Source of the DNA: Hydrolagus affinis
Lineage: Eukaryota
Reading direction: 5' to 3'
Assembly: GCA_012026655.1 (NCBI GenBank)
Contig: JAAILG010001723.1
Coordinates: forward strand, 1 to 62,460
DNA length: 62,460 bases
Shown here: positions 20,510 through 61,318 of the stretch, one piece after another
How the letters are laid out: every line of letters starts with the position of its first letter
How positions within the stretch are numbered: the stretch's first letter is position 1
Made by a program: the position numbers and the translations under genes
Notes under the pieces: generated by a model
What the model saw: only the letters and a program-made list of their open reading frames with translations
What the model was told of the DNA's origin: nothing
Database searches by the model: none

Positions 20510-20515
20510 AATAAA
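20510..20515 (+). terminator. Candidate NPEPL1 polyadenylation signal
   Basis: AATAAA 435 nt after the stop, followed by T-rich sequence; further AATAAA at 20900 and 22103. Confidence 0.5.
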
Positions 20516-21368
20516 ATGCTGTTTTTCATCATTCAGTCCATCTCTCATGAAAGATTGTCGGTGAAAGCAGAACCTTGCTTGACAAGCTACATTGGATAAG
20601 TTCTATTCATACCTGATCACTCAGTGTCTGAATTGCAGGCACTGTCTGGTGTCTATAATCACCACCTGTCATTTTTCAAATACACCTTTCTCTGCCTTCA
20701 AAACCTCTTGGAAGTGGCTTTTTTTGTTAGATGGTGTAACCTTTTGTGGGGAGTACTGCTGTCCGTCACCCAGGAGAGTGAGAAGCCCCCACTCCATCCC
20801 CAGCCACTTCTGCCAGAGTAACCGAGAACATTGTCCCAAACTGTTTGGCTGCATGTTTATATTGAACAGATCGGAGTTGATGATTATGTTGATGACTTTA
20901 ATAAATAATTTTTCACAGTTGGTCATTGGTGATCTGTTTACTTCCCACAAACAATCACTTTCCGTGTTACCACATCCTGCACATTCTTGCGGGACGCTAA
21001 CCCGTGCGGAGGGCGTTATATAAATGCAAGTTGCATATCTTCATCGCAGAAAAACCCAGTGAGAAAAATATGAGTGAGGCAACCAATAGTTTTTAAATGA
21101 ACTAAATTAACAGGGCAGTGAATGGAAAGTATCCCTCAGCTGAGCCTCTCAAGAACTTATATTTATTTTTGGTCAAACAGGTGACTGATGTGGGTGGAAA
21201 CCCATTACCTGACTTAAAAGCATCCAAACCGAACATGCCATTTCCATCTTCCATCCCACTTACACATGGAAATTTCAGAGTTGTACATTGGAATAGTTGC
21301 TGCTGGGACGCAACCTGCTTACCTCAAGAAATTCACACTTCACGTTCAGTTTAATACTCTTCCTATTG

Positions 21369-21374
21369 TTTATT
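21369..21374 (-). terminator. Candidate polyadenylation signal of the Piezo gene
   Basis: TTTATT on + (AATAAA on -) about 1.5 kb past the stop at 22852; a second copy at 21162-21167. Confidence 0.35.
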
Positions 21375-22851: not shown

Positions 22852-25800
22852 TCACTCCTTGCTCTCGCGAGTCCACTTGATCATGGTCTCGGGTGACCTG
22901 TAGAGGAAGATGAGTTTGGCGAATAGCTGTTCCTCCAGTCCCAGCTCCCCGGTCTCACGGACCAGAAAGATGTCCGTGCAGAGCTTCAGAATTCTGTCCG
23001 TGTTCGGCAGTTCCTCAAACATTATGGAGCGAGAGATCCCGTTGAAGAACTCGCGGACAAACTTGCCGATGACCAGCACTACAGACATGTACAGACCCAC
23101 AATCCTGGAACACAGAGGCACAGGGAAGATGAAGGGGGAAGGTTACGTTGTGGAGTCGTGTAACTCAGTGGTTACAGCGCGTGCCTCATAAGCAAGAGTC
23201 CTAGGATTGATTCCCGGCAGGAAAGTTTCCGTATTTTACATGCCTGGTAATAGTCCCTCGAGAAAAAAAATAGTATCAATCCACAACTGTTTGTGGGTCA
23301 CTACTGTGCGCAATTGACTGCCGCATTTCGCCCACAAATATACAGTCAATTTAGTTTACAGTGAGTGTATTCTGTGAAGCGCTTATAGAATCAAACAGCA
23401 CAGAAGTACTGTAAACCAAATGTACTGTATTACGGTACATTTGGAGATTACAAACACCCAAATAATACAAAGTGTTGGTGTCTCTACCCATATCCAGCCA
23501 AGAAGCTCAGGCTCGAGGGGCTGACTTTGTCACTGAAGATAGTGAGTTGCAGATTGCTGCAGTCCTGGCCTGCACACTCCTGGACATTCCACCACTTTAT
23601 CTTCCCGCTCGTGGCATTGCCTGGGTTCTCCTCCAGCCTCAGAGAGATGTTCCTGTAGAAGGCCAGGCTCCGATAATTCTCTGTCTTGGAAACATCTGCT
23701 CCCATCGTAAAGCAAAACATACAGCCATCATTTCAATGTTTCGCCCACAAACTATGCAGTGATCCACTTTAAAGTGTATCCTAAGAAGCACTTTGAGACT
23801 TGATAAGCTGCTATATCAAGTATAAGGATTATTATTAATAATAATATTATTCAATATTATTCTTCTCCCTTAGAATCCTCACTAGGTTCTCCAGCTCTAT
23901 TCCACGTGGCCCTGCATTGACCGAGGTTGTCTATGTGACATTCTGTTCTAGAATGTTTATTATTTATTTCCACGCTGTTGTCCTTTTTTTGGTTTCGTAC
24001 TAACTCAGATTCCATCTGGTTTTCCCTCAGGTGTTACAAAGAAACAGGAGGAGTTTCTCCTCTTATCTAGTTTGTGTTCCCTCCTTATCCAAGTTCATTC
24101 CCAAACATCTGATTGATGTGTTGCTTGAAAGAAACTTTTCAGCATTTGGTTGTGTAGGACCAATGGACTACCCTGGCTGTAATCATTATGTGAGGTTGCC
24201 AGAGTTATACAGTAGGGGTAATGGGAACAGAAGGGGAATCTACAGTGTTTTTGCCACATTGCCTTTGGGGTTCAGGGCTTGCATGTGCAGAGCTTCCCTT
24301 TGGGAGAGAGCGTTTTGGGTGAAGTTGAGTAGGAACTTTGACAGGCCAAATGGCTTTTTCTGACTTTACATTCATAATATCCACGCAAATCAAGAACAAG
24401 TAACTTGCATTTATGTTTAAATAATCCCTAAAAAAAGTAAAAATTGGTCATCTCATTCCATGACAGTTTATGGGACACTGTTGTGCACAATTGGCTGCCA
24501 CCCACAAAATATAGTCAATTCATTTTACGCTATATTCTGTGAAGCGTTTGGGGACATCTAGAAGACATGAAAAGTGTCATATGAAATGCAAGGATTATTA
24601 TTAAAGCCACAAACCACATCCTCTCATGTCATCCTCAGCTCATTCCCTGATCTCCAATGGGAATATGTCCGTTCCTTATTCCCAACACCCAGTAGGATGC
24701 AAGTTATTAGAAAGAACTTACAGTTGCTCACTTGTCCAGTTACTCACCCACTTTCAGCCGTCTGGCTTCCTTGGCTTCAAGTCCACCAGGTGCTCGGATG
24801 TACTGTGGGACCAGCCCCTGGATCACTCTGAGAGGAGAGACAATTAAACCAGATGTCACTCCTTAATCCACAACATCTGTGGCAATGATTTAGCTGGAGC
24901 AAAGCTAATTCACTTCCATCAGTGGAGCACTATGCGGCAGGAGCCAGATTTAGAATTCCTACTCCACTTTTGAGTCACATTGTAGCTGTTAAACTTCAGC
25001 CTGGCTCAGTGAGTGGTGCTCTGGCCTGTGGGCTCATACCACACATCTGGACTTTGAACTCACGGTAATATACAGTCATTCACTTCTGTGAAGCGCGTTG
25101 AGATATCTCAAAGGCATGACAAGGCGCTACAGTAAAACCTCGATAATCTGGCACGGTTGGGACCACGCACCTCCCGGCTTTCGGTGTTTGCTGGTATTTA
25201 GAACCTATCCTAGAGATGGTTGGGGAAGCACTGTCTTTATGCACCATGTGTGCTGTAAACACAGCACTGAAGCCGAGAAGGATGGAGTTCCAGAGGGTCG
25301 GGGCAGAAACGCTGAAGGCCCAACCTCCAATGACATATTTCAAGTATTATAGGTTCTGTATCAAATGAGAGGACTATTAAGTTGTTAAGATAATGTGGCC
25401 TTGGGACATCCTCCTGAAGGGCTCTTTACAACTGTAATATTGTTGTTGTGAGTTAATGTGGCCTTGCATGCCAGGAAACTGAGAGACAAACAGCATGCCA
25501 CGTACACAGGCTTCTTCTGGGTTCCTTCTAACAGCTGCACTAGTCCGTCCCTGATATCTCGATCTCTGCAGAGTAGTGTGTTCTTGCCGGTTATCTCCGG
25601 GTTATTTGTAAGAGAAACATTCCTGGAGAAAGACAAAGAGTCAGGCACACGTAGGGACACGGGCAACACCAGCCTGGAGTGGAGACAGCAAACAGCAATG
25701 TGTTTCCCTTTCCCACACTTTTCCCTGCTGGTCAGTTCAGTTTTCTTGCACATTTTCCTTCATAAAGTACAGCCAATGCAACAGACTTCGAGGACACCAT

Positions 25801-28800
25801 ACCAGCTGTGAACTCGTGGATTGAAATTCCGCCTGGTCTTAGCCTGCGAGGCCACTCTGCTTTAACATTTACGATCTTGCAGAATTACACACCAAAAAAA
25901 CTTGAATTCAGACTTAACCTGGGAGCCGGTTATAAACAATTCTTAAAGAGCAATGGACTGTAAGATTACGATTAAAATCAGTGTTTGATATCCAGAGTGC
26001 GTGTAGGAACTGGGACAATCTTGATTGATCTTAAGGAATGTGAGAGAGAGAATTTGATGGATGTTGTTTCTTTCCTTATTTGGAAGACTGGGGTCTAGCA
26101 ATAATGTGTGATATCCCTTGGATAGGACATTGTCCTGATTAATTGAACTCCTGGTGCCGTCCAGTCTGCTTGGACGGGATCTTGAAAGGACTTTACGACA
26201 TGAAGATGTCAAGGAAGGACAATTAACTTGTTAACTTGAATTTTTCACACTTTGTATCAGAGGAACTCTCACGTTCCCGAGATTAAACCTTGATAACTTT
26301 TGTGAGGGGTGCCCGGTGCAAGGTAATGTGATTGGATGAACCAGTCTGGGGATATTTGGTTGCAAGTGTCATTATGGGCTAAAATGGAGTTAGAAACATA
26401 CAAAAGAAAGAGGTAACTTTGGTATAGTTGGGATCATCGTAGGAGGAACAATGAGGCAGCTGGTGGTCAGCGACTTCCACAATAGAATCGGGTAATATCA
26501 GTTTTGTTGAATTTTACTGTTTTAATGTAACAATGATATAATAATTGCATGTGTTAAAGCATTAACCTTTGAATTGTGTTTGATATTAAAAGATTCGTAA
26601 TCCACACCACCTGTATTGGGTAAAGTCTCCTTCTTGAAAAGTTACAGGACTTCAAAATTAAGATTAGAATCATAGAATTATACAACACAGAAAGGGGCCA
26701 TTGGGTGCATCGTGTCTGTGCTGGCTCTTTGAAAAGAGCTGTCCAAATCAATCCCACTCCCCAACTCTCTCCCCACATCCCTGTAAACGTGTCCTCTACA
26801 AATAACTATCTATATCTCTCTTAAAAGTTATTATTGAATCGGCCTCCACTACCCTTTCAGGCAATGCATTCCAGAATCAAACGACTCGCTATATGAAAAA
26901 ATGTCCTTTTAAAATTGCGGTGACCAGAACTGTACACAGCATTCTAAATCACTGATGAGACCATAGTTATACAGTGGCAGGATTACCTCTCTATTTTGAC
27001 TTGCTATTGATCTTTTGATGCATCCCAACATTTTGGTTTGCCTTACTCGCTCTTGTTACGTCTCTGGCCTCCGTCTCTCTTTACTGCTCTTGATCTGTTC
27101 TTTTTCTCTCATTTTCTTGCACTCTGTCTTTTTCCTCTCTGGGTCTTTCTCATTCTTGTTTATCTATCTCGCCATTTTCCTTCCTCTCGCTTTATTGCTA
27201 CATAACATTCACTGAACTGTAAATTAGCTCTTTCTACCAAGCACTTTAGGATGTGTCAGGACATTGGATTCCAATAAGAAACAGTTTGAAGTTAATAGGA
27301 AGTTGGCGGATGTGGGATTAAATCAATGGATATGTTTCATTCCTTATCCATCTTTTGATCTTGTACTGTCGGGGTGACCAGACTGATCAATGCTTCCCTA
27401 ACCTCAACACACTGAGAACTTTTCCATTCTCAAGTACCTCAGGATGGTCCAATAGAGATGGATATAGATGTGGGTCGAGTTAGCAATCTCCTCTCTCATG
27501 GCTTTGAGGCTTGCTGGGCTGATGCTCCACAGTAGATTAGCGTCACTCTTTATGTGAGCTACCATGATGTCCTCTGGCTGATAGTTCACTAAAAACTGCA
27601 TGGCCGACTATGAAGAAGAAAGGGAGTATTTAGCTGACAGTTTTCCAAGACTTTTAACTCTAAATCTATCAGGAACCATATAGCTTATTGGTTAGAGCGC
27701 TCGCCTCGCAAGAGAGAGGACCTGGGTTCAATTACTGCGCGAGGCAAAATTTTAGGGAAATTTCCTTACTCAAGATGACTGTTTACCTAGCAGTAAGTAG
27801 GAACCCGGTTAGTAGTTGATTAGTGGATTGCTTTTCAGAGGGTAAATAATTCCTTAATTAAAAAAAATGTGGTCACTCAAACCACGACTGTTTGTGAGAC
27901 ATTGCTATGTACAATTGGCTGCCGTATTTCACCCACAAATTCTACCAAGCAATTCATTTGATAGTGTATTTTGTGAAACTCTTTGAGATGTCTCAACTAG
28001 GTAATAATGCGCAAGACTAAATACTGTACAAGGATTATTATAATCATCTTCACTCAGGCGGACAATGTGAAACTCACCGGAAATTGAGTGTACCAACTCG
28101 TCAGTTGGTCATACTCCGCGTGGGAGAATGGCCTCAGGTTCTGTTGCTGGGCACTCATTGTAAACAGAGGCTGCACACAAAGAAGCCAAGAGGTTAGCAA
28201 TGATTGAATGAATGTTTTCCCCTCTCAAACACCCCTTATATCTCCCGAAATTCTATCTCCTTTGGGGTACAGCTCTGGGCACCAGGACTGAATAGGCACT
28301 CCATGGTCAGACAGTGTCTTTACCAGTGTAACCTTGCAGCAAGATAAGAAGTATTTTAAAGTTCATATTGCAGCAAAGTGTTCGAGCTGCATTAACAATG
28401 ACAACAAATTACATTTGTACAGCGCCTTTTGTCAGGAGGATTATCCTAAGGCACTGCGTTATAGAGGTTTGTTGGTAAGTGACAGCCACAAAACATCTTC
28501 CCTTTCCTATTCCCCAGACCCTCATTTCAATATCCTTCTTCCCTTAAGGGTTGGTTGGGACTGATTGCTGGCAGAACTTTTGACTGTGGGCAGTCTTACA
28601 GCCAAGAGAACAAAGAAGGTTCAAGAAGTCAGGAGGTTACATTGAGATGTGGTCAGATACCAGCCTAAGAAATATCCCTTGATAGAGATGTGCTTTACCT
28701 CGTATCCACTGATGCTGATTTCAACAGAGACATCCAGAGGTTGGTTGGTCACTCCAGCCACTGACTTAATCAGTGACATGAAGAGCAATGGGAACCATAT

Positions 28801-31800
28801 GATGCAGATCAGCGAGAAGATAATGAGACCACCCATTCCATACTTCACCACCATGTTCTTCTTCTGCCCCGAAGGCTGAGGATACCTCTGAGAATGGACA
28901 AGAATGTATAAATGTAATTTTCCAGTTCTCCATAAATCCATGATGTTCAACACTTCCTCCCCTCAGATATCCACCCCAGCCCTTGCCTCAGAATGGGCCT
29001 TGGTTTGATGAGCACTGCCCAATCCTTGGCAGTTTGTCAATCTATTACCCTGTACAGTGAGTCCTGGTCTATTATGCCAGCCTGGCTCAGTTGGTAACAC
29101 TCACTCCTCTGAGTCAGGAGGTTGTGGATTCAATCCTCCACATTAGGACGTAAACCTCATAATGTCTAAGCTGACATTTTCCTTCAGATGAGACATTAAA
29201 CAAAGGCCCTTTTGGGTGGATGTTAAAGATTCCATTTTCTCTTTTCTAACGGCACTATTAGAAGAGTGTCCCAAATAATTACGTTGTTTTTTTGACATTA
29301 CTGTGCACAAATGTGTCCACAGAACACACAGGCAGTATGCTTGTTGCTCAAATCCATGTTGGCTCTTATCAACACCAGACATCTTGCTGCTCACCTTCTC
29401 CGATTCCCTCCAGCATTTCATGATGAAAATGTTAGCGTAGATATCCTCTACACAAATCCAGCTCGAAATGCTGAGCGTGGTGTCCGTCCACACCCAGTCC
29501 ATCACTGCCCTCAGCTCTGTCAAGAAGGGAATCATCCGAAATCTATGGGAGAAATCTAGATTTATCTCTGTTAATGAAATAACACGTTAGCATTGCCTGC
29601 TAGAGTAAGCTTTGGATTATTTCGTTTTTTAAGATTCTAAAGGGACAGGGTCATGTGGACCACAATAATCTGTTTTATCATCATAGATTTTTGTGGGACG
29701 TTACTTGGATGCAACTGAGCTGCTGCATTTGATTTCAACCATGTAACTAAATGTTACAGTAAATCCTCAGAAGCGCTTTGAGGCATCTCGACAATGTGAT
29801 AAGGGTGCTTTATCAAATGCAAGCATTATTATTATGATTACTCCTACATTTGGCACTGCCCAGCCCTTTCCTCACACAGCTGGTTCTTTCGCATCATTTC
29901 AACTTACCCTTGAAACAGGAACAGGTTGAGGTAGTTGTAACTCTTGGTCAGAAAGTTGCCGAGCACACGGTTTGGGTAGCCACATTTGATCTGATATGCG
30001 GAGAGGCCAAAGTAAACACATTTGAAAAAGTACCAAAGTTGAGCCACAGAGTTCTGGTTGAACCTCCTGGAATTGGAGATCACAGAAGCGATTAGACATG
30101 GTCTCACATCCACTGCTGCACAGCTTCCCAGCACACCTACATACTGAATCCCCAAATCCACTACACTGTCTTTGGTGAAAATGTTTTAAAGCCTAAAAAC
30201 AAACAAGGGAACAAAGTATTTTAAGATCTCAGAATCACCCCCTGAACAGACAATGGGGTAGATGAAATTCCACTTGGGTCTAATTTTACTCTGTTAACAG
30301 CATTTTGGAAGGTACAGAATTTTGCCTATTCTTAAATAAAGTCTTACATCTTGTCATCAAGACATCTCAGTTCAACACTGTATCAAATATAAGGATTATC
30401 GTCAACTAAATATCATCGATTAAAAAAATAGTAATAATAATTTGGTCACTCAATCCCCGACTGTTTGTGGAACACTGCTGAGCGCAATTAGCTGCTGTGT
30501 TTTGCCCACAAAATATTCAGTCAATTCATTTTGTAGTGTATTCCGTGAAGCTTGAGATGCCTTGAAGATATGATAAGGCGCTCTAACAAACACTAGGATG
30601 ATTCTTATAAGAAGTGCTTCCCCAGTTGAGATCAGCCAAGTTAGCACATAGTGGGATTGGAAACTGCAATATTTTGGTCTATGTCACTCAATGCTGGTCC
30701 TATCAGAGCATTGGATGAATCCAGCGATTTCCCCCAATTTACGATGAAACATCTGGAGCTATGTGCTGATATATGTCACCTCTCGGTCACTCCAGGGAGG
30801 ATGAAGAACATCCAGAAATGGATGCCAAACACCAAGATGACTTGGAAGACGACCTTTCCAAGGACAGTTTTACGGAGGTACAGAGCCCTGTCCACAATCA
30901 TGGTGGCAAACTGAATCAGCAGCATCACCAGGAAGGCTTGGGGAACTTGATCCTCGGAGAGAGACTCTGTGATGTCTGCAGCAGCAGAATGCTTCTAAAC
31001 AAGAGAAATATTTCATCGTTAGCCACTTGTGGTCGAGTCCCTTCTCAACCAATCGCCTGTTTCTCAAATTAGTCCATCTATTTTCTATTATATATATATA
31101 ATACATATACACACATATATATATAAATATGTGTGTGTGTTACTATATCTACTCAGAAAGGTGTCGACACATGCAGAAACCCATCACTGTAATTAAGAAT
31201 ATCCAAACCAAACTTGAGAATTCCATGCATCCCATCTACACAAGGACATTCCAGCGATAGATTGTTGGAAATGAAGTGCACAGTCCTTCCCTGGAGGGAT
31301 GCACCTGGATTACCTTATTCCGAAAAAGTATTAGGCTAGGGCAGGTTGGCAAGAGCCGAGTTGTGGAGCCCCCAAAGTGAGAATTGTGGTAACTTCTGGA
31401 GTCTAACCAGCTAAAACCGTATAGATTGTCATTGAGGGAACTGTCTCCACCCACTTACCCCAAAAGCCCAGTAACCAAACACGATGACAATGAAGTTAAT
31501 AACATCCACGAGGAACATCAATACGTAGACGTCACAGACGGCATTGTAGTCGGGATGGATGATGTTGTAGAAGAACTGTCTGATCGGCAGAGAGACCTGG
31601 AGAGCTCTGCGGGAAGGAAAAGATGTTAAACCGAGACCTCAGCGGCCTGAGTGGGTGGATGTTAAAGATCCCATGGTGCTATTTGAAAAGACAAGGGATC
31701 CATCCTAATGAGGAGATGCAGAGAGAATGTGATACAGTGTGTCCTGTGAAGCGCTTGAGATGTCTCAATGACTTGATAAAGCACTATATCAAATGCAAGG

Positions 31801-34800
31801 ATTATTATTATTAAAGAAACAGGACACTGCACTGAATGTTTCCATATATTTTCCCACAACATTCTTCCTGCATCTTCTCATTAGCTGCACAGTTCTTCTG
31901 CCCTCACTCCAATGCCATTCTCTATGTGTGAGCCTGGATGGTGCACAATTGAGTTCTCGATATGAACAGTGTGAACGGGGAAGGGAGGTATAATCGAGTG
32001 TTGTTAGGCTGTTTGACTGTGAACAGCCTGGGAGCTGAGCTCCACTTGTTCTCACCCGATTCCTGCACGTTCCAGCAGAAATCACTGCCACTGAGATTTG
32101 GTCTATCCCAGCACCTTATGACATCTTCCCGCTGTGAAAGGCACTACACAAACGTAATTTATTGTTGTTATGAGGCCATTTTGTCTCTGGATTTAAGATG
32201 ACATGGACTTGTAGAGCTGTGTAAAGAGCTACAGCTGTGTAAAGAGCTTTGAGATATCCTCCCGCATGAAATGTCTCAAACCGTTATATTCTAGACTAGG
32301 GTTAGTTTGCAAAGCGATGGCAGCGAGCGAGGTGACACAGGCACAGATAGGCAGCGAGCAAGCACTTCTTACACAACTGTGGCATATCCTTTTGCCGCAT
32401 TCATCTTTTCCTTCACCGTCTCTTTTAAGAGCCCCCTTTTCAGCTTTGGTAATCGACAGCCTTTCCTCTTCTTTGTTGATTTCTTCTTTGGAGGCTTTGT
32501 CCCGCCTGAGAACGAGGTAATAGACTGGATATTAATCTGACTGTCACTGACAGCAAACACCTCACTGGGCTCTGTCACTAATCCAACACAATGTAATTTT
32601 ACGTTCACATCATGATTTCAGTGTCTTGGGACGTCTTACCGACGTGAAAGGCGTTCTATAAATGTAATTATAAATGTTGTTGTTGATTTTCACATCGGAA
32701 AGACATCTCAAATGCTTTACATAATTGACTGGAAGCCTGAGTGGGGGGACGGGGAGAAAAAGGTGGTTGAAGAGATCGGTCTTACAGGTTTAAAAGAGGA
32801 GAGAGGAGGTGGAGGGACTCCAGGGAGCCAATGTTATTGACTGTGTTTCACCGTGATTAAAGTGAGAGATCAACCCATTACAATTCTAATGTGACTTTAG
32901 AATTCGTGTCTTTAGTAGCATTGACCAGGCTGGTGAGAATTGGGGATGTGTGAACCAGATTCCTGCACCCATTGACTTTCTGTCATAGAAACACAACATT
33001 AATAAAACTCCTGTGTTATGAGGATTTGGAGTCTGAGGCGCACAGACTTACCCTCATCACCTGATGGGCGCGATGCTCGCCTGCGACCCTTCCTGCTGCC
33101 AGGGGATTTCAGCTCGTCCTGCAGGTTGATGGTTTGCATGGTCTCCTCTTGGCAATGGACTAAGTCTTCTTCATTCTCTCCCGTTTGCTTTCCATTCTCT
33201 GTACAGTCTTTCTCCTTCACATCATCCTGAGAGTCCCACAGCCCATGACACTGACAGCCCACGGAGAGGAGAGAAAATGGATCATGAAACAAACATCACT
33301 TTCCCAGCAGAGAGAAAGCCTCTTGTGAAAACAACAAGAACAACAACAAACAACAAAACTTACATTTATCCAGCGCCTTTAACATTGGGAGGCTATCTCA
33401 AGGTGCTGGACATTCAGGGATTTGGACTCAAGTTGGGGTTTGGAATCAGGAGAGGTAGAGGATAGGAAGAGTGGGGGTACAAGGGTGACCAAAGGCATGG
33501 TTGGAAGGGAACGTTTTGCGATGGGCCTTGAAGGAGGAAGGGGTGGGGGCAAGGTGCAGGGATTCCAGGATGGAGTTCTAAAAGGTGGCAGTGGATAGAA
33601 ATACTGAGGCCGGACTGCCGATAGCGGAGTAGGCAGGGGACATGGAGCAAAGACAGGTTGCTGAAGTTTTAATAGGTCCTCAAAAGCATGCCTGTATCTG
33701 TGTGTATTTACCTTGAGAATTGATCTGTGCAGGAATAGTGCGAGGAGCTGGATGAGGTCATAGTGCACATAGCCGGCCTTCTTCTCAACTCCCACTATGT
33801 TTGGGAGGTAAAAGGGCCGGTCGGAATTCATGACCCGAGCGGTGGAGGTAGTCCAGGGAAAGAAGCCAAACTGAAAGCAATACTTCACGACCACGGTGAC
33901 CTGTGGGAAGTGGGGGGCGACTGTCATTCCTAATCTCCATGGCACAGCGGTAGACCATGCAGTCCATTTGAGCTACATCTGGACAGTGCTGAGACAATCC
34001 AAAGTGCTTCACAGTATAGATTATAAATTGAATGTATATTTGCGTATACTTGTGGATGAACCATGGAAACCAATTGCATACATCAGTGTCCCACAAACAG
34101 TCATGGGTTGATTGAACCAATTAATTTTTTTTTAAAAAAAGGATTATTATTCATGGAAAGTGAAGTGCCAATCAACTAACAACCACTGTTTGGTAGCAGA
34201 GGTGTGTGGACTAACAAAAGTTGCCTAAAATTTCACCCTACACAGGAGTCGAACCCAGGTATAAAGATATGATGTTTGTGAGTGTATTAACCCCTATGCT
34301 ATGGGACTCCACAGTTACTGCAGGACAGCATGTCATTCAGTGTACATTGCCAACACTGTAATGTATGGGTTTGTACCTCTGTGTACAGGATGGCCAGCAT
34401 CCAGAAGCGTTTCTTGGGCCGAGGCACAGAGAGCATTCCCCAGAGGAAGACCAGGATGGGCAGAACCAAGGTGAGCACCGAGGCCGAGATGATGTGGTTG
34501 AGGATGATGACAAAGTAGCACAGCATATCCGACTGGGACGCCATTGTGTCGTACAAGGCAAACAGCAGCTTCAGCAAGCGCGGCAACCTGTGGTAGAACC
34601 TCTCAGACTCTTCCAGGTCTGAATCGTGAAACAACCTGATTTAGGACAAGATTCCATTAGATATACAACCAACTGGTATTTTTACAGCATCACACCTCAA
34701 CAATCTCAATCACACCTAATTGCTCTCAATGAAATTTACATTTTACAGCACCTTTCATGTCGGACACACCATTTGCACTAAGATGTACAACATGAATCTC

Positions 34801-49800: not shown

Positions 49801-52800
49801 CTTTGATGCTGAAAACAAAAAAAAGACAGAATTAAATATTGAACTAACTCCAGTCAACATATTTTTGTGCGCATGATTAATTGGCACCATTTAATCCAGC
49901 TCGTTACAGGTAAACACCCAAATAAATAACTACAACATTAATTGAAATATTTAAAAGGGAGATGGGGATGCATCAGGAGTTGAATGTTACATAGTCCAGG
50001 CAATCTACATTTCACAACTTTGTATGTGAGGATTTCACTTCAAACTGGCTGTGCTCTATTGAATTACGGAGAAAAGTCGGGGAAATGAGTTGCAGAATTA
50101 TAAAGGACAATTTCAGGACAAACCCTCGGAAGTTTTTCTTTGCTTAGAAGTTAACTGACGACTGGAGTAAAGTTGGGAGGAAGGATGTTTGAGACTAGGA
50201 TACTGGACTAATTTAAGAAGCAACTTGATGCAGTGATGGGGAATGGTAGGGTGGATGTTCTGGAGGGATCAGTTCAGATGAGCCCAAGGACTTTCTTCAG
50301 CTGAACCAATCTTGTGAACTTGTGAGGAGATTAAAAGATCTTTCATGTCACAGTCTAATAAAATGGAGGAACAAGCTTGATAAGATGAACAGCTCCTAAA
50401 TACTTAAAATAACAACAATTTGTATTTATTTATTTAGTTCTCTTTACACAGGGTAGGCCTCTCTGAGCACTGTATAGAGGAGTGGGGACAGGATCCCTCA
50501 AATAGAAAGGAAGCCATGCTTTAAAAAGCAAATCGATTTCATTATTTTAAGCACCTCAATCAGATCAGAAACAGAGACTATCAGCCCAGGGAAACCCAAC
50601 TTCTCACCTACACCAATCTTCTGTACTCGGTGAAAGGGTGAGTCTATATGATTGACTTCAGACGTGTGAGCGAACACTTACCTCTGGGATAGGATGGTAA
50701 TACGACTCTGCACTTTGAGGTAGCTGAAAGAGGAGAGAAAAGAAATCGACATTAAAAAGGGAGAGAGGAGCACACAGCCTCACACTGATTTTCCCACTCG
50801 AAGTCACTGATGGTCAACCGGTGGGCCAATTTGTATCGTCCCTCTCTGACTTCCTCATCCACCAATCCACAACCTGGAGTGTCTGCTTGACTGGCACCGG
50901 CCTCCTCCTTATCGTTCACACTCTTCACTCCACCATTGGAGGTCACACATTTAGCCACTATGAGAGGGGTGACACAGCATCAAAGGAGGCCATTTGGATA
51001 ACCGAGTGTAATGGAATGCCGGGTGACTTTACCTGTACACAGTGTTGTCCTCCCGGGGAGTGATGTTCTTGCTGTCTGTGAGGCTGAGAAAATCCTCGTG
51101 AAAGTAATGGAGCTGCAGTATACAGGCCAGCAGGAAGGCTGAGGGCAGCAGGATTCTGGTGAAGAGCTCTGTTGTGTCATACTGCTCGAGGCCCATGTCA
51201 TTCAGACTACAAATGGCAGGTAAACACAACAACAAATTACATTTATACAGCGTCTTATCACATCATTGGCATACCTCAAAGCGCTTGACGGAGTACACTG
51301 TAAAGTAGAGTGACTGTGCATCTTGTAGGCAAACGCAGCAGTCAATTGCACTCAGCAGTGCCCCACAAATAGCCATAGAGTAAGTGACCAATTTTATTTG
51401 GGAGGGATTGTTGGCCAGGACACTGGGAAAGAGAAACTCCCTTCTCTTTTGGGATTTGAGCAACCAATTTCTACACGGCAACTTGCCACAAACAGCCAGA
51501 CGAATGGGGGAAACTCCTTTTCGAAAGGGGGCCATGAGATTTTTACCATCCAGCTGAACAGGCAGATGGGATCTCAGTTTAACGTCTCATCCGAAGAACA
51601 GATTTTTATTTTAATTGATCCTCGTGAACGTAGTTTAACACATTCCAAACATGTCGGTTTCAATGCTTGCATTCAAATCTAAACTCAGATAAGTCACTGC
51701 AGTTGACAGTGATCACGTGTGAGGTGCTCTGGCCACTGTTTTAACGTGACAAGGTGACGTGAAAACTCAGAGATTGTTTACCATCTTGCCGACCCTTCCC
51801 TTAAAACACAAAGCAATCCAGGCGCATGCGTACCTGTCCTGAGATATTCCCATTATTTGCTGGAGGAGACCAGAGACTGTTTTAAACTGATAAGCGTAGA
51901 TAGAGATAAGCACTCCCATTGAGTAAGAAACCACCGTGATCCAGAAATACTTCAGGATTCGTCGCCACCACTCGTAATGTATCTGGAAGCAGACAAACGG
52001 GAGTGGGCTGAGTGAGCTCTATGCAAAGGCTGGTTAGAGATCCTCAAACTCCTTGAAATTTGATACAGCGCTTTCACTTAAAAGAACTTGTCTCAAAGTG
52101 CTTTCACTGTGATTTTACTGTAAAGTGCAGTGACTGTGCATTTTGTATGCGAATGCCTACGGAAGAGATGTCAATAGGATCTGAATGTCCCACTTTTTAC
52201 CCCTCTTCTCATATCTTCAATGGATTGTGATTACTTGGTGCTATACAAATGTAATTTTTTTTTGTTATTGTTATATCCCAGTTGGCAGTAAATCAGCCTC
52301 CGAATTCCAAAGCTGTGTATCATTTGTGGATTGTCAATACACAAGGAATCCACTTTACAATATATTGAAGCTGTGAAGCACTTTGAGACATTTCAATGAC
52401 ATGGTGATACTCTATATCCAATGCAAGGATTACTATTATTATTTATAAGTGAGGAATCTCATTAACATCAGTAGAGGGTGATATTACTTCCTGTATTTAA
52501 CTCCCAATAACCTTCACCACTATGTTGAGCATTTACCTGGTACAGGGCCACACAGAAGAGGAAAAGCACGATGTAAAGGATCTTGTAGACCACCACTCTC
52601 CCATTGAAGCTAACAATGAAGAACATTGCACCACAGCAGTACATCCAGTACTTTACCAACAACCCTTTCACAAAGGAGCCCAACACTGAGATGAGTTCCC
52701 CTTCCTTCTGTGTGTTGTCTGCAGAGGAACAGAAAATGGGAAAGAGTTTATCCTGAAGTTTTGAATTGTTCAGATCTGCAATTCACAATTTTTCAAAGGG

Positions 52801-55800
52801 TGGGGTGGTGGGGATGTGGGGCTTTGCTCTTTGAGGACTTTAGTCTGGGAGTGTAAGTGCTAAGTTTACATTCACTACGTGTGGAGGGTTTTAGTCTGAC
52901 AGTGAATATTCCTTCAATCAAAGGAAGGATAGAGATATTGACAATCAGCGTTGCTTTTGTGATACTTTATAAACAGAACCGATTGCCATTATAGGAATCC
53001 AGCCAAAAAAATGAGATGGTCATTCAATTCATGTCAGTTTATGGGATACTGCTGTGCACAATTGGCTGCTGCACTTTGTCCAAAAAATATACAGTCAATC
53101 CACTTTACAATATATTCTGTGCAGCATTTTGAGATATCTCAATGATGTGATGATAAGATGCTATATCAAAACAAAGGATTATTATGATAGTGCCAGTGAG
53201 TCAAAATCCTAATGGGATAAAAAGAGTATTTGACACAGTAAATTAAAATGGATGAAGGATGCAATGTATGCACATTTTCTACAGTTTTTTCTCACCTGTC
53301 TCTTGCATGCTGACCTCACTGAGAGATGCCTGTGGCTGTGTTCTCATTTCCTCCTTTTCAGTCAAGTGCTGACGGAGTAACAGCCAGAAGATGAATGTAT
53401 AGAAAATCTGTAATACAACATGTGTAGAGCATTCCAAACTGGAATCCAATCCAGGAGTCCTTCACTCCCTCCTTCCTTCCTTCCTTCCTTCACTCCCTCC
53501 TTCCTTCCTTCCTTCCCTCCCTCCTTCCATCCCTCCCCTCTTTCAAGGTACTGTACATCGCAAACATACACTTTGACCATGAATTTGGTCATTTATTCCC
53601 TCAGTACCCATCTGCAGCTCGGGCACTCACAGTAATAATAATAATAATAATAATAAACTAGGAACAAAACATCTGAGTTTTCAGCAATCGACACTTGACG
53701 GTCACTTTTGCCAAATGTTGAAGTTAAGGTTAAAGTAACTAGAGTCATTAACATGCTGACTGTTGCTTCTTACAGACCTTGGCTCCCAAATCCACACAGG
53801 GTGCATAAGACCTCTTCAGGTCAAAGTCAATGAGGACAGCGTTGGTCACATCAGGGAACAGCTCAGCCTCATTCAGCTGTAAGCCAACAAAGAACTGTTG
53901 GGCAACAAGGAGGTTGCCATAGACCACCAGAAATGGAGAGCTCAGCTTTGCGTATCGCTGGCGGTCACGCAACATCCAAATAATACAGGACCAGATGAGC
54001 AGAGCGAAGGTCAGCCAGCTGTTGTAAGTGATGCTCCAGACCTGAGAAGAAACAGATTATTATTAATACAGATTCACAAACCAATTCTGATATGTGAACA
54101 TCTGTGAATATGATTCAGATTTTGGTACCAGTCAGGGTGTTTGTGCCAGTATCAGTGAGACGCACATCTGAGTTGCAAGTTATTGTGTTTATTGAGTTGC
54201 TTTTCACAATATTTTGGTGAGATTACACAGGAAGATTGAAATGGACAGAAGGAAGGAAACACAGAAACACTCACCATCATGGTTATCAGGGCACAGATAT
54301 AGCTTTGCTTCATGATGAATTGGCCAATTATCACTAAGCTGCTGGGCTTGTCACTCCCATCCTCCTTCAAGATCTCTGACTCAGTGTAGTCCTCTGTGGG
54401 AAGCCAAAGGAGAGAGAAGTGAATGCATAATCCAATCTCATCTGTGGAATACTTGTGTTTCCTATTCTTGCATCCTATATGTAGCACTGAGACCGAGGTA
54501 CTCCTGATTGGCCCTTGCCAACACCTCCGCACCTCAGGTACTGGCAGCATCAACATCCAGGGATGCTCACTCCACCTCACTAAGCCAGTCGGGAACCTGG
54601 GCATCTTGTTCAACTCTCAACTGTCCTTTCTCCTCCATACCCATGCCATGACCCACTCTGCCATTCCCCACCTTTGCAACATTGCCTAATTCTGCCACTT
54701 CCTCACATCTCAGGCTGCCGATATCCTTGCATTGAATGTCTCTCCAGATATATATCCAACAGATGAGATAACTCTCAGATGTGTTATGAGCACAGTAGGA
54801 AACATTGTTACTCAATTACTAAGTGCGTTTCCTGCCACTTACCCATGCTGTGTGTTACTTCTGTAATCTTATCCGAGTGGGAGGGATGTTGAGGGTTCAT
54901 CGGCGAGGAGAATATTTCTCCCGGCAGACAGTTATTGTTCCTCTGGGGCTTGTCGTGTGGAATGATGAGTTCTATTGTATTTCCACTTACAGGGTAAATC
55001 AATGGTTGCTGTGAATTAAATGTAATTTTAAAATCAAGGCACAATAGCCTTTAATAGCTGTACGTTTCAAGAGTTGTACTGAAAATCTATCCATTAAACC
55101 CCAACTTTAGGATTGAATATTGAAATAATATTATTATTGCAATAATAATTCTTGCATTTGATATAGCACCGCCTCACATTATTGAGACATCCCAAAGCGC
55201 TTCACAGGGTATATTGCAAAGTGGATTGAATGTGTAATTTGTAGACAAAGCACGGCAGCCAATTGAGCACAGCTGTGTCCTACAAACAGTCGTGGAGAAG
55301 ACATTTTGGTTCATCAACTAACTGTCTTCTCTCACAACTTGTGGAAAAATACCTGAACTTAGAGCCCACTTGAAAAGACTATCTGAAGGAGAGTGCCTAA
55401 AGACGCTTATTTTACGTGAATAGTAATAATCCTTGCATTTGATATAGTGCCTTATTGTTGAAATGTCTCAAAGTACTTTACAGATTTATTGTAAAGTACT
55501 TTGAGACATTTCAACAATAAGGCACTATATCAAACACAAGGATTATTATTACTCATTTATTTATATGGTTCTGTGTCTGAGTTGCCACTGAAAGCAATCC
55601 ATTGAATTCCATTTAGCTGCCTGCCAATTACTTGCTTTTAGGTATCTATCTGGTACCCGTTTGAAAGGTATTGCTACTGCTGGTGACATTATAAATTTCC
55701 AGATCAGGGAAATTAGCTCAGTTCATTCACACGCTCACCTTTTTCCCATCTGTTTCCACAATCCACAAATCTCTTTCTACATCAATATATTTTGACATGG

Positions 55801-58800
55801 AGTCTGCGCATTCAGGTTCCTCGTCTGGGGGATCAACCAGCTGTGGATTAGGGGAGGATTTAATAGACAGATAATCTTTGTTCATAACAACACAACAACC
55901 TGGATTCCATCTGACTCGGTCACGGCCACTCCGAGCTATAGTTGTACTAAGTGATGGCAAATATCCCACTACTGAACAACTGCTTTGTGTACAGTTATAG
56001 TAAAAGTAGTAACCCTTTCATTCGATGCATCATTTCACCAAGTTGGCAAGACATTGGAAAGAGATTCATAGGAGCCATTGTGAAAGTGCAGTCACTGAGC
56101 ATTTGTGGGCAAACGCCGCAGAATCTGGGTCCGCTCCCTTATGAGGCGAGCGCACCAGCCACTATGCTACAGGACTCCACCTGTGCCTTACCTGTGATTG
56201 AGTACTGAGTGCTAGGTGTCGGATGACGGTGGCCAGGGTGTAGTACAGCAGGAGCAGGCTGGCGAGGTTCAGGAGGACGGGCCAAGGCTGCGTCCCATGC
56301 GTCTGCAGTCTCCACGGCTCGGTGTCATTGGTGCTGATCAGCGCTGACATACCAAACAACCTGCAGCCAGAGGCATTCATCATGGACAAAGCAATCACAC
56401 GCCATTGTTCAAATTGGTTACAATAATAACTCGCAATCTTCTGACTAGGGGGCGAGAGCGCTACCACTATGCCAAGCTAACGTATCCCATTGAGCATCTT
56501 CCTGACATGATTGCTATGGTGTAAAGGTAAATTGTTACTGTCATTTGTACTGTATCGTGTTCTCTCCAAAATGCTGAGATCTTACCTGGCAACGAGGTGC
56601 TGGGGCGGCAGCACAGCCTGGATGGCGTGGAGCTGGTACAGGTAGAGGACGGTCAGATGTGTTGCGCTGATGATGGCCATGGTTACACACAGACAGCAGA
56701 AGAAGGTCAGACTGAATGCCCGTCGGCAAGCCCACCAGGACCCCAGTCCCAGGAATGTGAGGAAGTACACAGCCGAGGGCAGGGAAGGGAGGACGATACC
56801 TGGAGAGAACGAGGACTCACAGTCAAGGGCACAAAAGGACTTGTTTCTCTCCTCACTGAGAAGCGTATTGTGGTTACTGAGGGTGAGGAAGCGCTTGTTC
56901 CCTCCTTAAAGTACATGTAGAGGAGAATGGTCTTTATACATTTTTGTAGACATCTCAATGACATGATAAGGCACTATATCAAATGCAAGGATTATTATTA
57001 TATATCACTATTATTATTAAAGATTTTGCCTTTCTCTTGCCAAAGTCACTGACCTGCTAAACATAAGAGGAGTGTCACAAGAAGGGTCCCCGCTGTCGTC
57101 ACCAATGCTCCCACCATCTCTTTAAGGCCCAACATGATCAGCGTCACCTTCTCAACTAAGGTCGGCTTCTTTTCCTTTGGTTCTTCTGGCTCCTCCTCTT
57201 TATCTGCCTCATCATCTCCCTTCTCACTCTCCGCCTCCTCCTCAGAGCTGATCTCAGACTCTTCGTCACATTCAGCGTCGTCCATGTCTTCCTGAATGGT
57301 AGAAATGTTCCATTTGAACCTGTGCAAATTATCTTTTTAAGCATTTTGAGGTGGGGGGTGGGGGGGCGGTGGTCAGTCAGGTGTCTGGCACATGCAGAAA
57401 TCCATCACCGTGCTGAGAATTCCATGCATCCCACATGGAATTTCTATTCACAATTTCTATTCCTAGATGCATCCTATCTAGGAATAGAAATTATTGTAAT
57501 AATACTAATAGTTTTTGCATTTGGCACAGCACCTTACCACATCACAGAGATGTCTCAAATCACTTCACAGGATACAGTACACTGTAAAGTGAAGTGATTG
57601 TATTTTGTGGGTGAAAGAAGGCAGGCAGTTAGGTGCACAGCATTGTCCCACAACAGTCATGGAGTAAGTGATCAATTCTATTGGGGGGATTGTTGGCCAG
57701 GATACTGGGAAAGAGAAACTCCCTTCTCTTTTTGGACTGTGACATGGGATCCTTAACTGGCTAGTGGCTTCCATCTAAGTTGCTGAACCTTTTCCGCCTT
57801 TTCCTACGTACCTCTCGCTCTGGCTGATCCTGGGATGATTTTCCTCGGTCTGGCTTTGACGCTAGTCTTCTGCACATGGTGAGAAACGCCAAGCTTCCGA
57901 TCAGCATCCAGACATCCGGTGCAATCAGCCTGATGGCATTCCCGGGATCTGCCTCACTCAGTCTGTGCAGACACAAACTACTTACTTTTAAAGGTAACAT
58001 TCAGCTACAGCATTTCCGTACAAATCCCTTCACACCCTGGCACCTCCCTGTCTCTCCAACTTCCTTAATCCACATTCCACCACCTGTCACCTTCACTCAT
58101 CTGGCTTTGGGTTCCTGCTTGTCCCTTGTCTTCTCCACTCCACCATCGGTGGCCGTGCTTTATGCCAAAAAACTTTTGGAACTCTCTCGCTCAGCACGTC
58201 TGCCTGCCCCCTCTTTTCCTATTTTCAGAGCACGCCTGAAGACCTTCCTCTTCAACCATGCTTAGGGTCACCATCACTCACCTTGTTGTCGCCTCCCCCC
58301 ACCCAATGTGCCCTGAGATACAGGAACCATCAATTAATATTCAGCAGTGAACAGAGTATGTATTCTGCATGATGACTTGCTGTTGAGGCTTACCGCGTGA
58401 CTCCAATGTGCCAGAGTGCTGTCTCCCAGTCTGTTCCTGTCAGAAGAGAATTGAATAGATTAGATGATGAGATAGCATGTTGAGATGTTCATATGAATAA
58501 ATGTTTGAAGGTGGCAGGACAGGTAGTTAAAGCTATTTAAAAAAAATGCGTATAGAATACTAGGCTTTGAATTAGGGGCATAGAATACAAAAGTCAGGAA
58601 GTTATGATAAGCCTTCATAAAACACTGGTCAGGCTTCATCTAGACTAGAGTACTGTGTTCAGTTCTGGGCACTGCACTTTAGGAAGGATGTCAAGGCATT
58701 GGAGAGGATGCAAAGGAGATTTACCAGGATAGTACCAGGATTGAGGGACTTCAGTTATCAGGAAGAGGCTAGAGAAGCCAGGATTATTCTCCTTGGAACA

Positions 58801-59817
58801 GAGAACATTAAGATGAGACTTAATAGAAGTTTTGTAAATTATGACTGGATTTGATAGGGTGAACAAGGAGAAACTATTTCTACTGATGGGTGGGTCAGTA
58901 ACTCAAGGACACTGATTTTAAATAGTTGTTGAAAAAAACACAGGAATTTTTTTTTCACACAGTGAGTTGCTCGAATCTGGAATGTATTGCCTGAAAGGGT
59001 GGTGGAAGCCAATTTGATAACAACTTTTAAGAGAGAAGTAGATAGTCATTTGGGGAGGACGGGTTTGCAGGACTATGGGAAGAGAGTGGGGGAGTGGGAG
59101 TGATTTGGACAGCTCTTTTCAAAGACACATACACTATGGGCTGAATGGCCTCCTTCTTTGCTGTATAATTCTATGATTGCCTGTTATCCTATGTCAATCT
59201 GGAGTTCATTAATTGTTACAGTCAATCAAGATTTTGCTGATTTTTAAAATTCAAAATCTTCCTTTATTTCAACTGTATAATTTTTGGATATTTTTCAATG
59301 TTTCATATATTGTAACATTAATTTACTGTATATTTTATGGGTGAAACTGTATATTTTGGGGGCCAATTATGCACAACATCGTGGATTGAGTGACCAAATT
59401 TTTTTTTGAGGGAGTAATATCCCTGGAATGCGATCCGCCAATTGACTAAAAATGGGTTCCTACTTACTGTTAGGTGAACAGAGATGTGTGAGTTCAGTAA
59501 GGAAACTTGCCTAAAGTTTTGCCCTATCTGGGAATCGCGCCCGGTTCCTCTTGCTTGCCAAGGCAAGTGCTCTAACCACTGTACTACAGGAATCCACATG
59601 TAGCTTTGACATATTCGCCCAACTTGACTGGCACTAAATGTAAACTTGTATTGTGTTCTGGAGGAGGAATAATAAAGTGATCACTGAGTTCACTGTGAGG
59701 CTGGCATTGACTTACCATTATTTGGGACATAGAGAAATGTTATTTGAAATCCCAGCTGCACCAATAAGAAGACGAAGCTGATCAGACAGAGAGCGTTGAG
59801 TAACCGTCCAGTGTGCC
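22852..59817 (-). CDS. PIEZO3: Piezo-type mechanosensitive cation channel, PIEZO2-like paralogue (piezo3); 5'-partial, 52 coding exons, about 2,655 aa in window
   Basis: Exons in transcript order: 59817-59716, 58436-58394, 57962-57812, 57291-57054, 56799-56586, 56360-56192, 55840-55739, 54942-54843, 54393-54275, 54041-53778, 53407-53296, 52718-52537, 51982-51834, 51206-51033, 50723-50682, 49808-49776, 49026-48911, 47847-47678, 47112-46936, 46477-46364, 45729-45529, 44782-44578, 43753-43655, 43327-43162, 42604-42361, 42199-42103, 41276-41108, 40978-40889, 40669-40524, 39771-39718, 39052-38943, 38721-38601, 38128-38054, 37389-37223, 36659-36472, 35732-35562, 35286-35023, 34635-34377, 33900-33712, 33250-33052, 32577-32373, 31606-31459, 30994-30780, 30066-29908, 29542-29395, 28887-28699, 28170-28078, 27607-27438, 25622-25506, 24827-24748, 23695-23488, 23104-22852 (7970 nt, phases consistent, no stop). 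Piezo hallmarks: [21 protein letters not shown] (latch), [19 protein letters not shown] (anchor), [10 protein letters not shown]...[11 protein letters not shown] (outer helix), SIMFEELP...[19 protein letters not shown]. The family call is secure. The paralogue name rests on recalled synteny, and a few boundaries in low-complexity loops are best guesses. Confidence 0.9.
23150..23385 (+). mobile_element. tRNA-derived SINE
   Basis: Head GTGGAGTCGTGTAACTCAGTGGTTACAGCG..., B-box-like GATTGATTCCC, shared 3' body TGTGCGCAATTGACTGCC...GTGAAGCGCTT. Confidence 0.75.
26665..26990 (-). mobile_element. CR1 LINE 3' end fragment
   Basis: Begins with AGAATCATAGAAT (reverse complement of the CR1 ATTCTATG tail) and matches the CR1 3' end at 58495-59180. 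Confidence 0.7.
27679..28040 (+). mobile_element. tRNA-derived SINE, near full length
   Basis: TAGCTTATTGGTTAGAGCGCTCGCC head, GGTTCAATT B-box, shared tail ending AAGGATTATTA. Confidence 0.75.
31088..31140. repeat. (TA)n/(TG)n microsatellite
   Basis: Direct reading. Other (GT)n tracts at about 4855, 10815, 11106 and 18890. Confidence 0.85.
39205..39592 (+). mobile_element. Deu-domain SINE (SacSINE1/AmnSINE-related) with tRNA-like head
   Basis: Head AGTTCAGTTGGTAGCAC...GGGTTCAAGCCCC; central GGAGGTGCTGTCCATTGGATGAGACATTAAAC...CAGGTGGACGTTAAAGATTCCATGGCACTATT resembles the Deu consensus as recalled. Related pieces near 19495, 25000, 29080, 31620, 36735, 51300-51600, 57510-57760 and 61680-61940. 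Confidence 0.75.
42664..42995 (-). mobile_element. tRNA-derived SINE, near full length
   Basis: (TAA)n-CCTTGCATTTGATATAGC tail at left, tRNA-like head (reverse complement) at right. Confidence 0.75.
48440..48742 (+). mobile_element. tRNA-derived SINE, full-length representative of the commonest repeat in the window
   Basis: A-box TAGCTCAGTGG, B-box-like GTTTTGATTCT, body GTGGGACACTGCTGTGCGCAGTTGGCTGCC, tail AAGCGCTTTGAGATGTCT...AAGGATTATTATT. Many tail-only fragments occur throughout (e.g. near 1580, 7085, 9980, 21880, 45770, 55140). Confidence 0.8.
53459..53530. repeat. (CCTT/CCCT)n microsatellite
   Basis: Direct reading; a (TAA)n run follows at about 53633-53655. Confidence 0.9.
54480..54740 (+). 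mobile_element. L2-clade LINE reverse-transcriptase remnant
   Basis: Translates to TEVLLIGP...[14 protein letters not shown], matching the KTE..L..G / V.NLGV..D..LSF pattern of L2/CR1 RT. Similar remnants at about 47200-47520, 58020-58270 and 60495-60810. Confidence 0.65.
55422..55553. repeat. Near-perfect inverted repeat (hairpin) made of SINE tail sequence
   Basis: 55438-55482 is the exact reverse complement of 55490-55534 (45 bp) around a 7-nt loop; imperfect pairing extends about 16 bp further. Confidence 0.92.
58495..59180 (+). mobile_element. CR1 LINE 3' portion, decayed
   Basis: Degenerate ORF2 C-terminus ([36 protein letters not shown]) with indels, then a 3' end GGGCTGAATGGCCTCC...ATTCTATGATT. 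Confidence 0.85.
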
Positions 59818-61318
59818 CTGAAATACAGGAACCATCCATTAACACTCAGCGGGGTTTATGTTGTTGGTCTTGCTCAGCCCATTGAGCTCTTGCCTCTGAC
59901 TATGAGGAGTGCCTGGCTGAATAGCTCTTTCAAAGAAACGGCTCAGGTACGATGGGCTAAATGGCCTCGTTATGTACTGTATGATTCTATGAGTCTGCCT
60001 GATCTCTGCCAATGACTCTCTAAACAGCCTTGATCTCTGGACTTATTGAATGTTTCGCTTGTGTATTTAACATTGATTTTGTCTATGGTATTCATTTTGC
60101 AATAAAACCTTTAAAGTTTAGCATCTGTAAGTAAGCAATCTTTGAGGTCTGAATGAGATACTTAAGAGCACATTTCACATCCTCTTGAGCAAAAATACCT
60201 CAATATATTTTGGCTCAGTGAAACTCCAGAAGATCTTCTCTCCCAAAGGCTCAGAGTGGAAAAATATTTAATGAATGTTAAAATCCACCACTTTAACCAC
60301 AGAATATTCTCCAAATTTTACCCACAAAATACAGTCAATTCACTTTATAATATATTCTCTGCAGCACTTTGAGACGTCTTGAAGACTTGAAAGGGCACTC
60401 TATCAACTGCATGAATTATTATATTATTATTTAACATCCAAGCTTTGAGTTTTTTTTTTTTACAGACACCAATCCTTATCCTTTCTACCCCACATCTGTG
60501 CTGTCACTCGCTCTGCCTTCACCCCACCTCCGCAACATTGTTCGGCTCTGCCATGTCTCACATCGCCGGTTGCCGAAACCCACACACACAAATTCATAAC
60601 GTCCAGGCTTGACTATGCAAACTCCCTGCTTGTCTGCCTTCCCAATGCCTCCCTCCATAGATTGCAGATCATCCAGAACTCTGCAGCCCGTGTCCCCTCC
60701 TGCACCAGGCTCTGTGACCCTTCACAGAGAGGATACTGTTGAAGATCATGGTCCTCACCTTCAAAGCCCTCTATGGTCTTGCTCCCCCTTACATCTATGA
60801 CCTACTGTTAACCCTCAACAATAGCATTTAAAATTCTGCACAGATTCTCAGGTTTGTTGTTCAAGTGCTATAAAATATGAATTGCTAGATCAGGTGGCTG
60901 GGACCTTGCTTTAACCATAGGACAGCACCACTGGCAGCGCGCGCTCTCTCTTTCACAGCAGTGCGTGCCTGGGTTATAACCTTCGCTGGTGGTGTAATAC
61001 TTCCTAATGGACCTGATGTCTATCAGGCGAGGCTGCTGAACTAGACACTTTACATCTGTATTAATTGTAAAAGGATCGGCTAAGAGGTTTGTGTCACTTA
61101 GCACAGAGGGAGGACGGAAAAGGTCGATAGGGCACAGCATATTGACTGTCTTTGATGAAACAGCTCGACAACAGAATGGACAATTAAGGAAGATTTTAAT
61201 TGATAAATAGTTGAATGCGTTCCTTAACAGACTGCACTCTCTAACTCACTCAAAATCAACATGGTTCAACTGTATAATGTAACACCAAGACTGCTTCTCT
61301 CAGAGGAGTTATATATAT

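Follow-up and report, generated by a model that had tools for sequence, protein, structure and literature searches.

Touch, proprioception and vascular force sensing depend on Piezo channels, which in vertebrates were previously described as a family of two members (PMC6776524). A contig of the chimaera Hydrolagus affinis (JAAILG010001723.1, positions 1 to 62,460 of the forward strand; GenBank assembly GCA_012026655.1) raises the question of whether this lineage carries an intact third Piezo gene. The entire 62,460-nucleotide contig (C1723 of a 1.11-Gb, 245,464-contig assembly) was analyzed and is termed the window here. An earlier interpretation based on the letters of the window (the sequence-only reading) had proposed a functional third Piezo. 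The present results indicate that the gene is very probably an intact orthologue of vertebrate piezo3, distinct from PIEZO1 and PIEZO2, and that its product is likely a cation channel, trimeric and opened by mechanical force.

The family itself is not new. Piezo3 was named in a preprint by Dong et al. (bioRxiv, 18 May 2026; PMC13228305), where the zebrafish gene is si:dkey-11f4.7 and orthologues are reported from chondrichthyans, holosteans, teleosts, amphibians, reptiles and a few mammals. The available text of the preprint gives the synteny block as gnas-piezo3-npepl1-“stx6”-apcdd1l-vapb (presumably, “stx6” is STX16) and reads human PIEZO1P2, located between NPEPL1 and GNAS, as a PIEZO3 remnant. 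It also describes calcium signals on poking of HEK293T cells that express zebrafish Piezo3, and viable knockout fish that respond more to tapping. A little-studied piezo3, a paralogous block and the pseudogene PIEZO1P2 had all been named in the sequence-only reading; all appear in the preprint, by which that inference is almost wholly covered already. Neither “Callorhinchus” nor “chimaera” occurs in its main text or supplement text (the figures and Table S1 being outside this comparison). Judged by title, no other paper on this gene was present among those listed for piezo3, and none among those listed for Piezo in cartilaginous fish, in a search with subscription journals outside its coverage. 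The chimaera gene is thus an additional member of a recently named, little-studied family. It answers no open question by itself, and shark orthologues are already public as PIEZO2-like. However, its complete form in the earliest-branching lineage of jawed vertebrates places all three Piezos at the gnathostome base, and it supplies a full-length template, the Callorhinchus record found being a fragment.

Exons were called using tblastn with three orthologues, followed by spliced protein-to-genome alignment against a profile from 24 orthologous proteins. The tblastn matches of all three orthologues were colinear along the minus strand of the window. The spliced alignment yielded 52 exons between 59817 and 22852 with no stops and no frameshifts, and the identical exon path was recovered when stops and frameshifts were permitted at a penalty of 25. 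Three exon boundaries were corrected by hand after inspection, after which all 51 introns in the window were GT-AG (129–1815 nt, median 528). At exon 31, a GC donor was dropped in favor of a GT donor 21 bases on. The acceptor of exon 53 is a tandem site, and both choices are in frame. Within the window, the coding sequence extends from position 59817 down to a TGA at 22852 and comprises 7,955 nt including the stop (ca. 2,650 codons). Its first exon starts at a splice acceptor and was accordingly numbered exon 3, with ca. 54 N-terminal residues encoded elsewhere.

Exons 1 and 2 had no match within positions 59818–62460 of the window. A shark exon 2 query identified three genomic loci, on contigs C15626, C35674 and C3929. 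The top-scoring match, on C15626, was ruled out as the start of piezo3 because it is PIEZO2-type; C35674 was ruled out as PIEZO1-type. On C3929, exons 1 and 2, with the ATG, are located at 41182–41245 and 42255–42350, less than 2.5 kb from the contig end. That end is the same as the right end of the window over 171 identical bases, with no other match in the six contigs compared, and the two exons join exon 3 in matching phase. The complete gene has 54 exons and 8,115 nt, encodes 2,704 amino acids (full-length Piezos being expected to have about 2,500–2,900), and is spread over two overlapping contigs. The 52 uninterrupted exons of the sequence-only reading were therefore recovered; its figure of about 2,655 residues holds for the part in the window and is too small for the whole gene, which starts on C3929.

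All in-window exons are on the minus strand. Exons 3–7 are at 59817–59716, 58436–58394, 57962–57812, 57291–57054 and 56799–56586; exons 8–12 at 56360–56192, 55840–55739, 55008–54843, 54393–54275 and 54041–53778; exons 13–17 at 53407–53296, 52718–52537, 51982–51834, 51206–51033 and 50723–50682; exons 18–22 at 49808–49776, 49026–48911, 47838–47678, 47112–46936 and 46477–46364; exons 23–27 at 45729–45529, 44782–44578, 43753–43655, 43327–43162 and 42604–42361; exons 28–32 at 42199–42103, 41276–41108, 40978–40889, 40669–40524 and 39771–39718; exons 33–37 at 39052–38943, 38721–38601, 38128–38054, 37389–37223 and 36659–36472; exons 38–42 at 35732–35562, 35286–35023, 34635–34377, 33900–33712 and 33250–33052; exons 43–47 at 32505–32373, 31606–31459, 30994–30780, 30066–29908 and 29542–29395; exons 48–52 at 28887–28699, 28170–28078, 27607–27438, 25622–25506 and 24827–24748; and exons 53–54 at 23695–23488 and 23104–22852.

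Trees were calculated on ca. 550 C-terminal columns: a quick tree of 48 rows, and a careful tree of 22 rows with one outgroup, from which 26 of the 48 rows (including hagfish, Callorhinchus and two distant outgroups) had been removed. Sequences had been assigned to groups by their order in the searches and their names in the databases; the tree agreed with these assignments. Both trees featured three Piezo clades, and the chimaera gene fell within the third (support 100/100 in the careful tree). Nesting in PIEZO2 and in PIEZO1 was rejected by the approximately unbiased (AU) test (p = 1.08e-5 and 3.84e-5, respectively). The third clade includes sharks, rays, sturgeon, bowfin, gar, teleosts, lungfish, amphibians, reptiles, mole, tree shrew and deer. 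Over its full length, the chimaera protein is 65–71% identical to three shark orthologues and 58–59% to those of bowfin and frog, compared to 53–55% for three PIEZO2 and 48% for two PIEZO1 proteins. Its nearest sequence, UniRef100_A0A4W3J759 of Callorhinchus milii, is 90% identical over 508 columns and is its sister in the quick tree (99 SH-aLRT); that record is a 571-residue C-terminal model in which cap exons were apparently missed or mis-joined, whereas the gene described here is complete. For a cap exon, too, the best named match was a “PIEZO2-like” fragment of C. milii (85% identical), with a catshark protein next. In the careful tree, the terminal branch of the chimaera gene (0.13) is not lengthened relative to those of the same genome's PIEZO1 and PIEZO2 (0.15 and 0.24). 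Together, the open frame, the identity to Callorhinchus and this branch length suggest constraint.

The mole, tree shrew and deer sequences share a long stem (0.44, quick tree), and the deer protein is altered within the otherwise invariant MFEELP stretch; the mammalian survivors look like genes under relaxed selection.

PIEZO2 and Piezo3 were grouped with support of 93/94, and the alternative of PIEZO1 with Piezo3 was rejected (p = 0.021); a sister relationship of Piezo3 to PIEZO2 is favored but not proven. Exon lengths of 159, 148, 189 and 93 are common to all three paralogues, and the last ten exons have lengths shared or nearly shared with both PIEZO1 and PIEZO2. Such recurrence points to an origin by genomic duplication, not retroposition, and Piezo3 and PIEZO2 would go back to a single gene that was copied in the early vertebrate genome duplications. 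Of the proposal that the gene is a functional whole-genome-duplication sister of PIEZO2, the duplication and the separateness from both known Piezos were borne out, while sisterhood stands at the strength just given. The hagfish Piezo, which bears on the timing of the duplications, formed a long, unresolved branch beside PIEZO2 and Piezo3 in the quick tree.

Separate PIEZO1 and PIEZO2 loci, a check proposed along with the sequence-only reading, were both found in the same genome. Each of three different exon queries matched exactly three Piezo loci (these counts are lower bounds). Contig C14978 grouped with PIEZO1, and the contig carrying PIEZO1 also carries a gene that we take, from its motifs, to be CTU2. 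Contigs C3768 and C12285 grouped with PIEZO2 and were paired through complementary exons, without a linking overlap; a gene taken on the same basis to be NAPG is on the contig with the 3' part of PIEZO2. The same associations, PIEZO1 near CTU2 and PIEZO2 near NAPG, are given in the preprint text (PMC13228305). The chimaera piezo3 neither nests in the PIEZO2 clade nor is flanked by NAPG.

Of the 52 in-window exons, 32 were scanned against Pfam; 23 of these matched Piezo families, in the expected order (PF24871, PF15917, PF23188, PF24874, PF12166), in agreement with the blade, beam, anchor, cap and pore assigned earlier. Exons 3–16 (51033–59817) encode the distal blade (Piezo_TM1-24), with PF24871 in 10 of 10 exons scanned. 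The middle blade (exons 17–26, 43162–50723) had no Pfam match in the six exons scanned and was placed by alignment with orthologues and with the PIEZO2 locus. Exons 27–31 (40524–42604; PF15917 in 3 of 3 scanned) encode TM25-28 and a subsequent charged helix, which we take to be the beam. Exons 40–41 (33712–34635; PF23188) contain the helical unit THU8, exons 44–48 (28699–31606; PF24874) THU9, the anchor and the outer helix, and exons 49–53 (23488–28170; PF12166 in 2 of 4 scanned, and alignment) the extracellular cap, the most divergent portion of the pore module. Exon 54 (22852–23104) encodes the inner helix, the C-terminal domain (CTD) and the stop codon. A hydropathy scan, too crude to count 38 transmembrane helices, gave 22 segments, compared to 21–30 in four reference Piezos.

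Residue equivalences were obtained by gap-free mapping onto mouse Piezo1 (PDB 5z10), which has the same architecture and gate residues at 48% identity. In mouse Piezo1, E2133 is ascribed a role in conductance (PMC8105709), and L2475/V2476 are described as the inactivation gate, with K2479 and the MF and PE constrictions treated alongside (PMC6349400). All are conserved in the chimaera protein, as is R2482: E2133 corresponds to E2295 in exons 44–48, and L2475, V2476, K2479, R2482, M2493/F2494 and P2536/E2537 to L2631, V2632, K2635, R2638, M2649-F2650 and P2692-E2693 in exon 54. The Yoda1 pocket of mouse Piezo1 has been described as three alanines, A1718, A2091 and A2094 (PMC6776524). Unlike Piezo1, the chimaera protein retains only A2094 (as A2256); the other two are glycines (G1918, found by the 5z10 mapping, and G2253). 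Glycine at the A2091 site is usual, being present in 120 of 120 PIEZO2 and 117 of 120 Piezo3 clade members. At the A1718 site, by contrast, it occurred in none of 110 other clade members and none of 119 PIEZO2 sequences scored; G1918 may be a lineage-specific change, a polymorphism or a base error.

The likeness to PIEZO2 (mouse PDB 6kg7) includes the inner helix and CTD, which have glutamate at the G2483 site, glycine at the E2487 site, and LCTDIF; exon lengths and the glycine at the A2091 site are also shared. The chimaera gene differs in its divergent cap and very compact introns. Both the closeness of the pore to PIEZO2 and the divergence of the cap had been claimed earlier, and the motifs then quoted (23 protein letters) are present. 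Three residues before the MF constriction, arginine (R2646) replaces histidine, so that N-G-I-S-R-S stands where PIEZO2 has S-G-I-S-H-S. At least 118 of the 120 Piezo3 clade members carry this arginine, while histidine is found in 118 of 120 PIEZO2 sequences; judged from these alignments, it is the clearest mark of the Piezo3 clade near the pore. All eight clade-specific C-terminal residues are present in the chimaera protein. Most of the 120 third-clade matches are named PIEZO2 or PIEZO2-like, as had been predicted, and none piezo3. Piezo3 is thus broadly mis-annotated in the databases, and ISRS versus ISHS is a simple marker. R2646 and G1918 are residues open to testing.

By analogy with mouse Piezo1 and Piezo2, three Piezo3 subunits would form a curved propeller, the blades of which would be flattened by membrane tension; the beam and anchor would relay this movement to the pore as force, letting in calcium and sodium. 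Since the LV gate and the equivalent of K2479 are kept, inactivation is predicted to be fast and voltage-modulated. A small response to Yoda1 is predicted more softly, because mouse A1718G retains partial sensitivity.

Several points weigh against the identification as an intact piezo3 that encodes a working channel. The description “functional” is drawn from sequence, and the preprint text supports channel activity by imaging calcium in HEK293T cells and not by recorded currents (PMC13228305). Alignment support is weaker in loop exons 7–10, 17–19, 31–39 and 42–43, where boundaries are least certain. PIEZO1 and PIEZO2 as sisters were not rejected (p = 0.051 on these C-terminal columns with one outgroup). 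The type gene, zebrafish si:dkey-11f4.7, was not identified among the sequences used, which did contain cyprinids and other teleosts; for this reason, the link to the Piezo3 of the preprint is made through synteny and taxon spread. Zebrafish Piezo3 is likewise a third clade closer to PIEZO2 and adjoins NPEPL1 and a syntaxin gene, with proteins of 2,605 and 2,651 residues compared to 2,704 in the chimaera (PMC13228305). Finally, no G-alpha match was found on C3929, so that GNAS is absent within 41 kb upstream of exon 1, and the shark order of the preprint, with GNAS beside piezo3, fails over that range.

The orthology could be correct and Piezo3 nonetheless be mainly weak or modulatory, for instance dampening Piezo1/2 or co-assembling with them, instead of acting as a primary force sensor. 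The clade-wide arginine before the MF constriction would suit such a role; we know of no demonstrated Piezo heteromer, which counts against co-assembly, and all gate and conductance residues examined are kept. In zebrafish, the raised tapping sensitivity of viable knockouts led the authors to propose repression, but expressed Piezo3 yielded poke-evoked calcium rises (PMC13228305, available text). On balance, we regard a mainly weak or modulatory Piezo3 as improbable. Still less credible is a recently silenced or decaying gene with its frame still open, following the course taken by birds and most mammals. The gene model is known here from genome sequence, zebrafish can do without piezo3 and several lineages have lost it according to the preprint (PMC13228305), and the apparently rearranged upstream neighborhood could have cost it regulatory elements; however, an open frame of 8,115 nt with canonical splice sites, the 90% identity to Callorhinchus, and an end branch that is short beside the mammalian stem all argue the other way. 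That the gene is PIEZO2 itself or a lineage-specific duplicate of it, as the best PDB match (PIEZO2 for five of five exons searched) and the database names might imply, is refuted by the AU test, by the true PIEZO2 locus beside NAPG, and by a clade that spans sharks, ray-finned fish, lungfish, amphibians, reptiles and some mammals.

Beyond orthology to piezo3, a bolder proposal is that Piezo3, far from duplicating PIEZO2, has been kept across jawed vertebrates as a channel whose permeation and pharmacology are its own; conductance, calcium selectivity or gating would be altered by R2646 and the divergent cap. In chimaeras, GNAS would have been displaced by a rearrangement that brought piezo3 head to head with SPIRE3 and gave it lineage-specific expression, perhaps in sense organs of the lateral line or skin. 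We hold this composite to be speculative and rather doubtful.

The neighborhood of piezo3 in the window matches the STX16-NPEPL1 locus of the sequence-only reading, with both genes adjoining on the plus strand; we take them to be NPEPL1 and STX16 from their motifs. NPEPL1, an M17 aminopeptidase-like gene (11684–20075; PF18295 and PF00883, exon motifs), is convergent with piezo3, its stop at 20073–20075 being 2.8 kb from the Piezo stop. The 3' exons of STX16 are at 880–5319 by exon translation (the start is approximate, and the 5' part was not located); no Pfam match was found in the two frames scanned. Four AATAAA/ATTAAA hexamers on the minus strand (20897–21374; starts 21374, 21355, 21167 and 20902) are candidate poly(A) signals. 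Human PIEZO1P2, likewise beside NPEPL1, is a non-coding remnant (PMC13228305, available text).

Upstream, the chimaera differs from the block described in the preprint text (PMC13228305), as it does in being holocephalan and in the glycine at the A1718 site. In place of GNAS, C3929 carries a beta-tubulin gene and PIGT (Gpi16) at 4411–21099 and, at 27497–32400 on the minus strand, a divergent Spire-like gene with KIND and WH2-like exons, head to head with piezo3. Spire and tubulin genes themselves mark the paralogous blocks: in human, SPIRE1 and TUBB6 are near PIEZO2, and SPIRE2 and TUBB3 near PIEZO1. Other KIND matches, on three further contigs, resemble two additional Spire genes, and the neighbor is for this reason probably SPIRE3. 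SPIRE3 is known from other species, including Callorhinchus (PMC11231147; bioRxiv 10.1101/591974), and both it and piezo3 are described as lost in most mammals (PMC13228305; PMC11231147; bioRxiv 10.1101/591974). The GNAS expected to the right of the window was not there within 41 kb; its 3' exons are on contig C13178, followed on the same strand by NELFCD. Both names are our assignments from motifs. This arrangement suggests a local rearrangement upstream of piezo3 in the chimaera lineage; the preprint itself notes shifted gene order in gar and teleosts (PMC13228305), and a neighboring GNAS is not treated here as a hallmark of Piezo3. A search for ATP5F1E gave no significant match. No overlapping partner contig was found for the far end of C3929, and positions 1–260 of the window are a high-copy repeat, with at least 40 near-identical matches (96–98%) among 1,400 candidates, many at contig ends; from neither end could the contigs be followed on to GNAS or APCDD1L.

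A piece resembling exon 1 of the Spire-like gene lies in intron 18 of piezo3 (49381–49696, minus strand; KIND match). It is 82% identical over 348 columns to C3929 positions 32188–32532, nearly identical in the KIND-coding part, and covers the 5' region and exon 1. The addition of a KIND domain to Piezo3 was ruled out, as intron 18 is phase 2 and the donor of the piece, read in the KIND frame, is phase 1. A 29-base deletion takes out the ATG, and the piece is likely a dead local duplicate.

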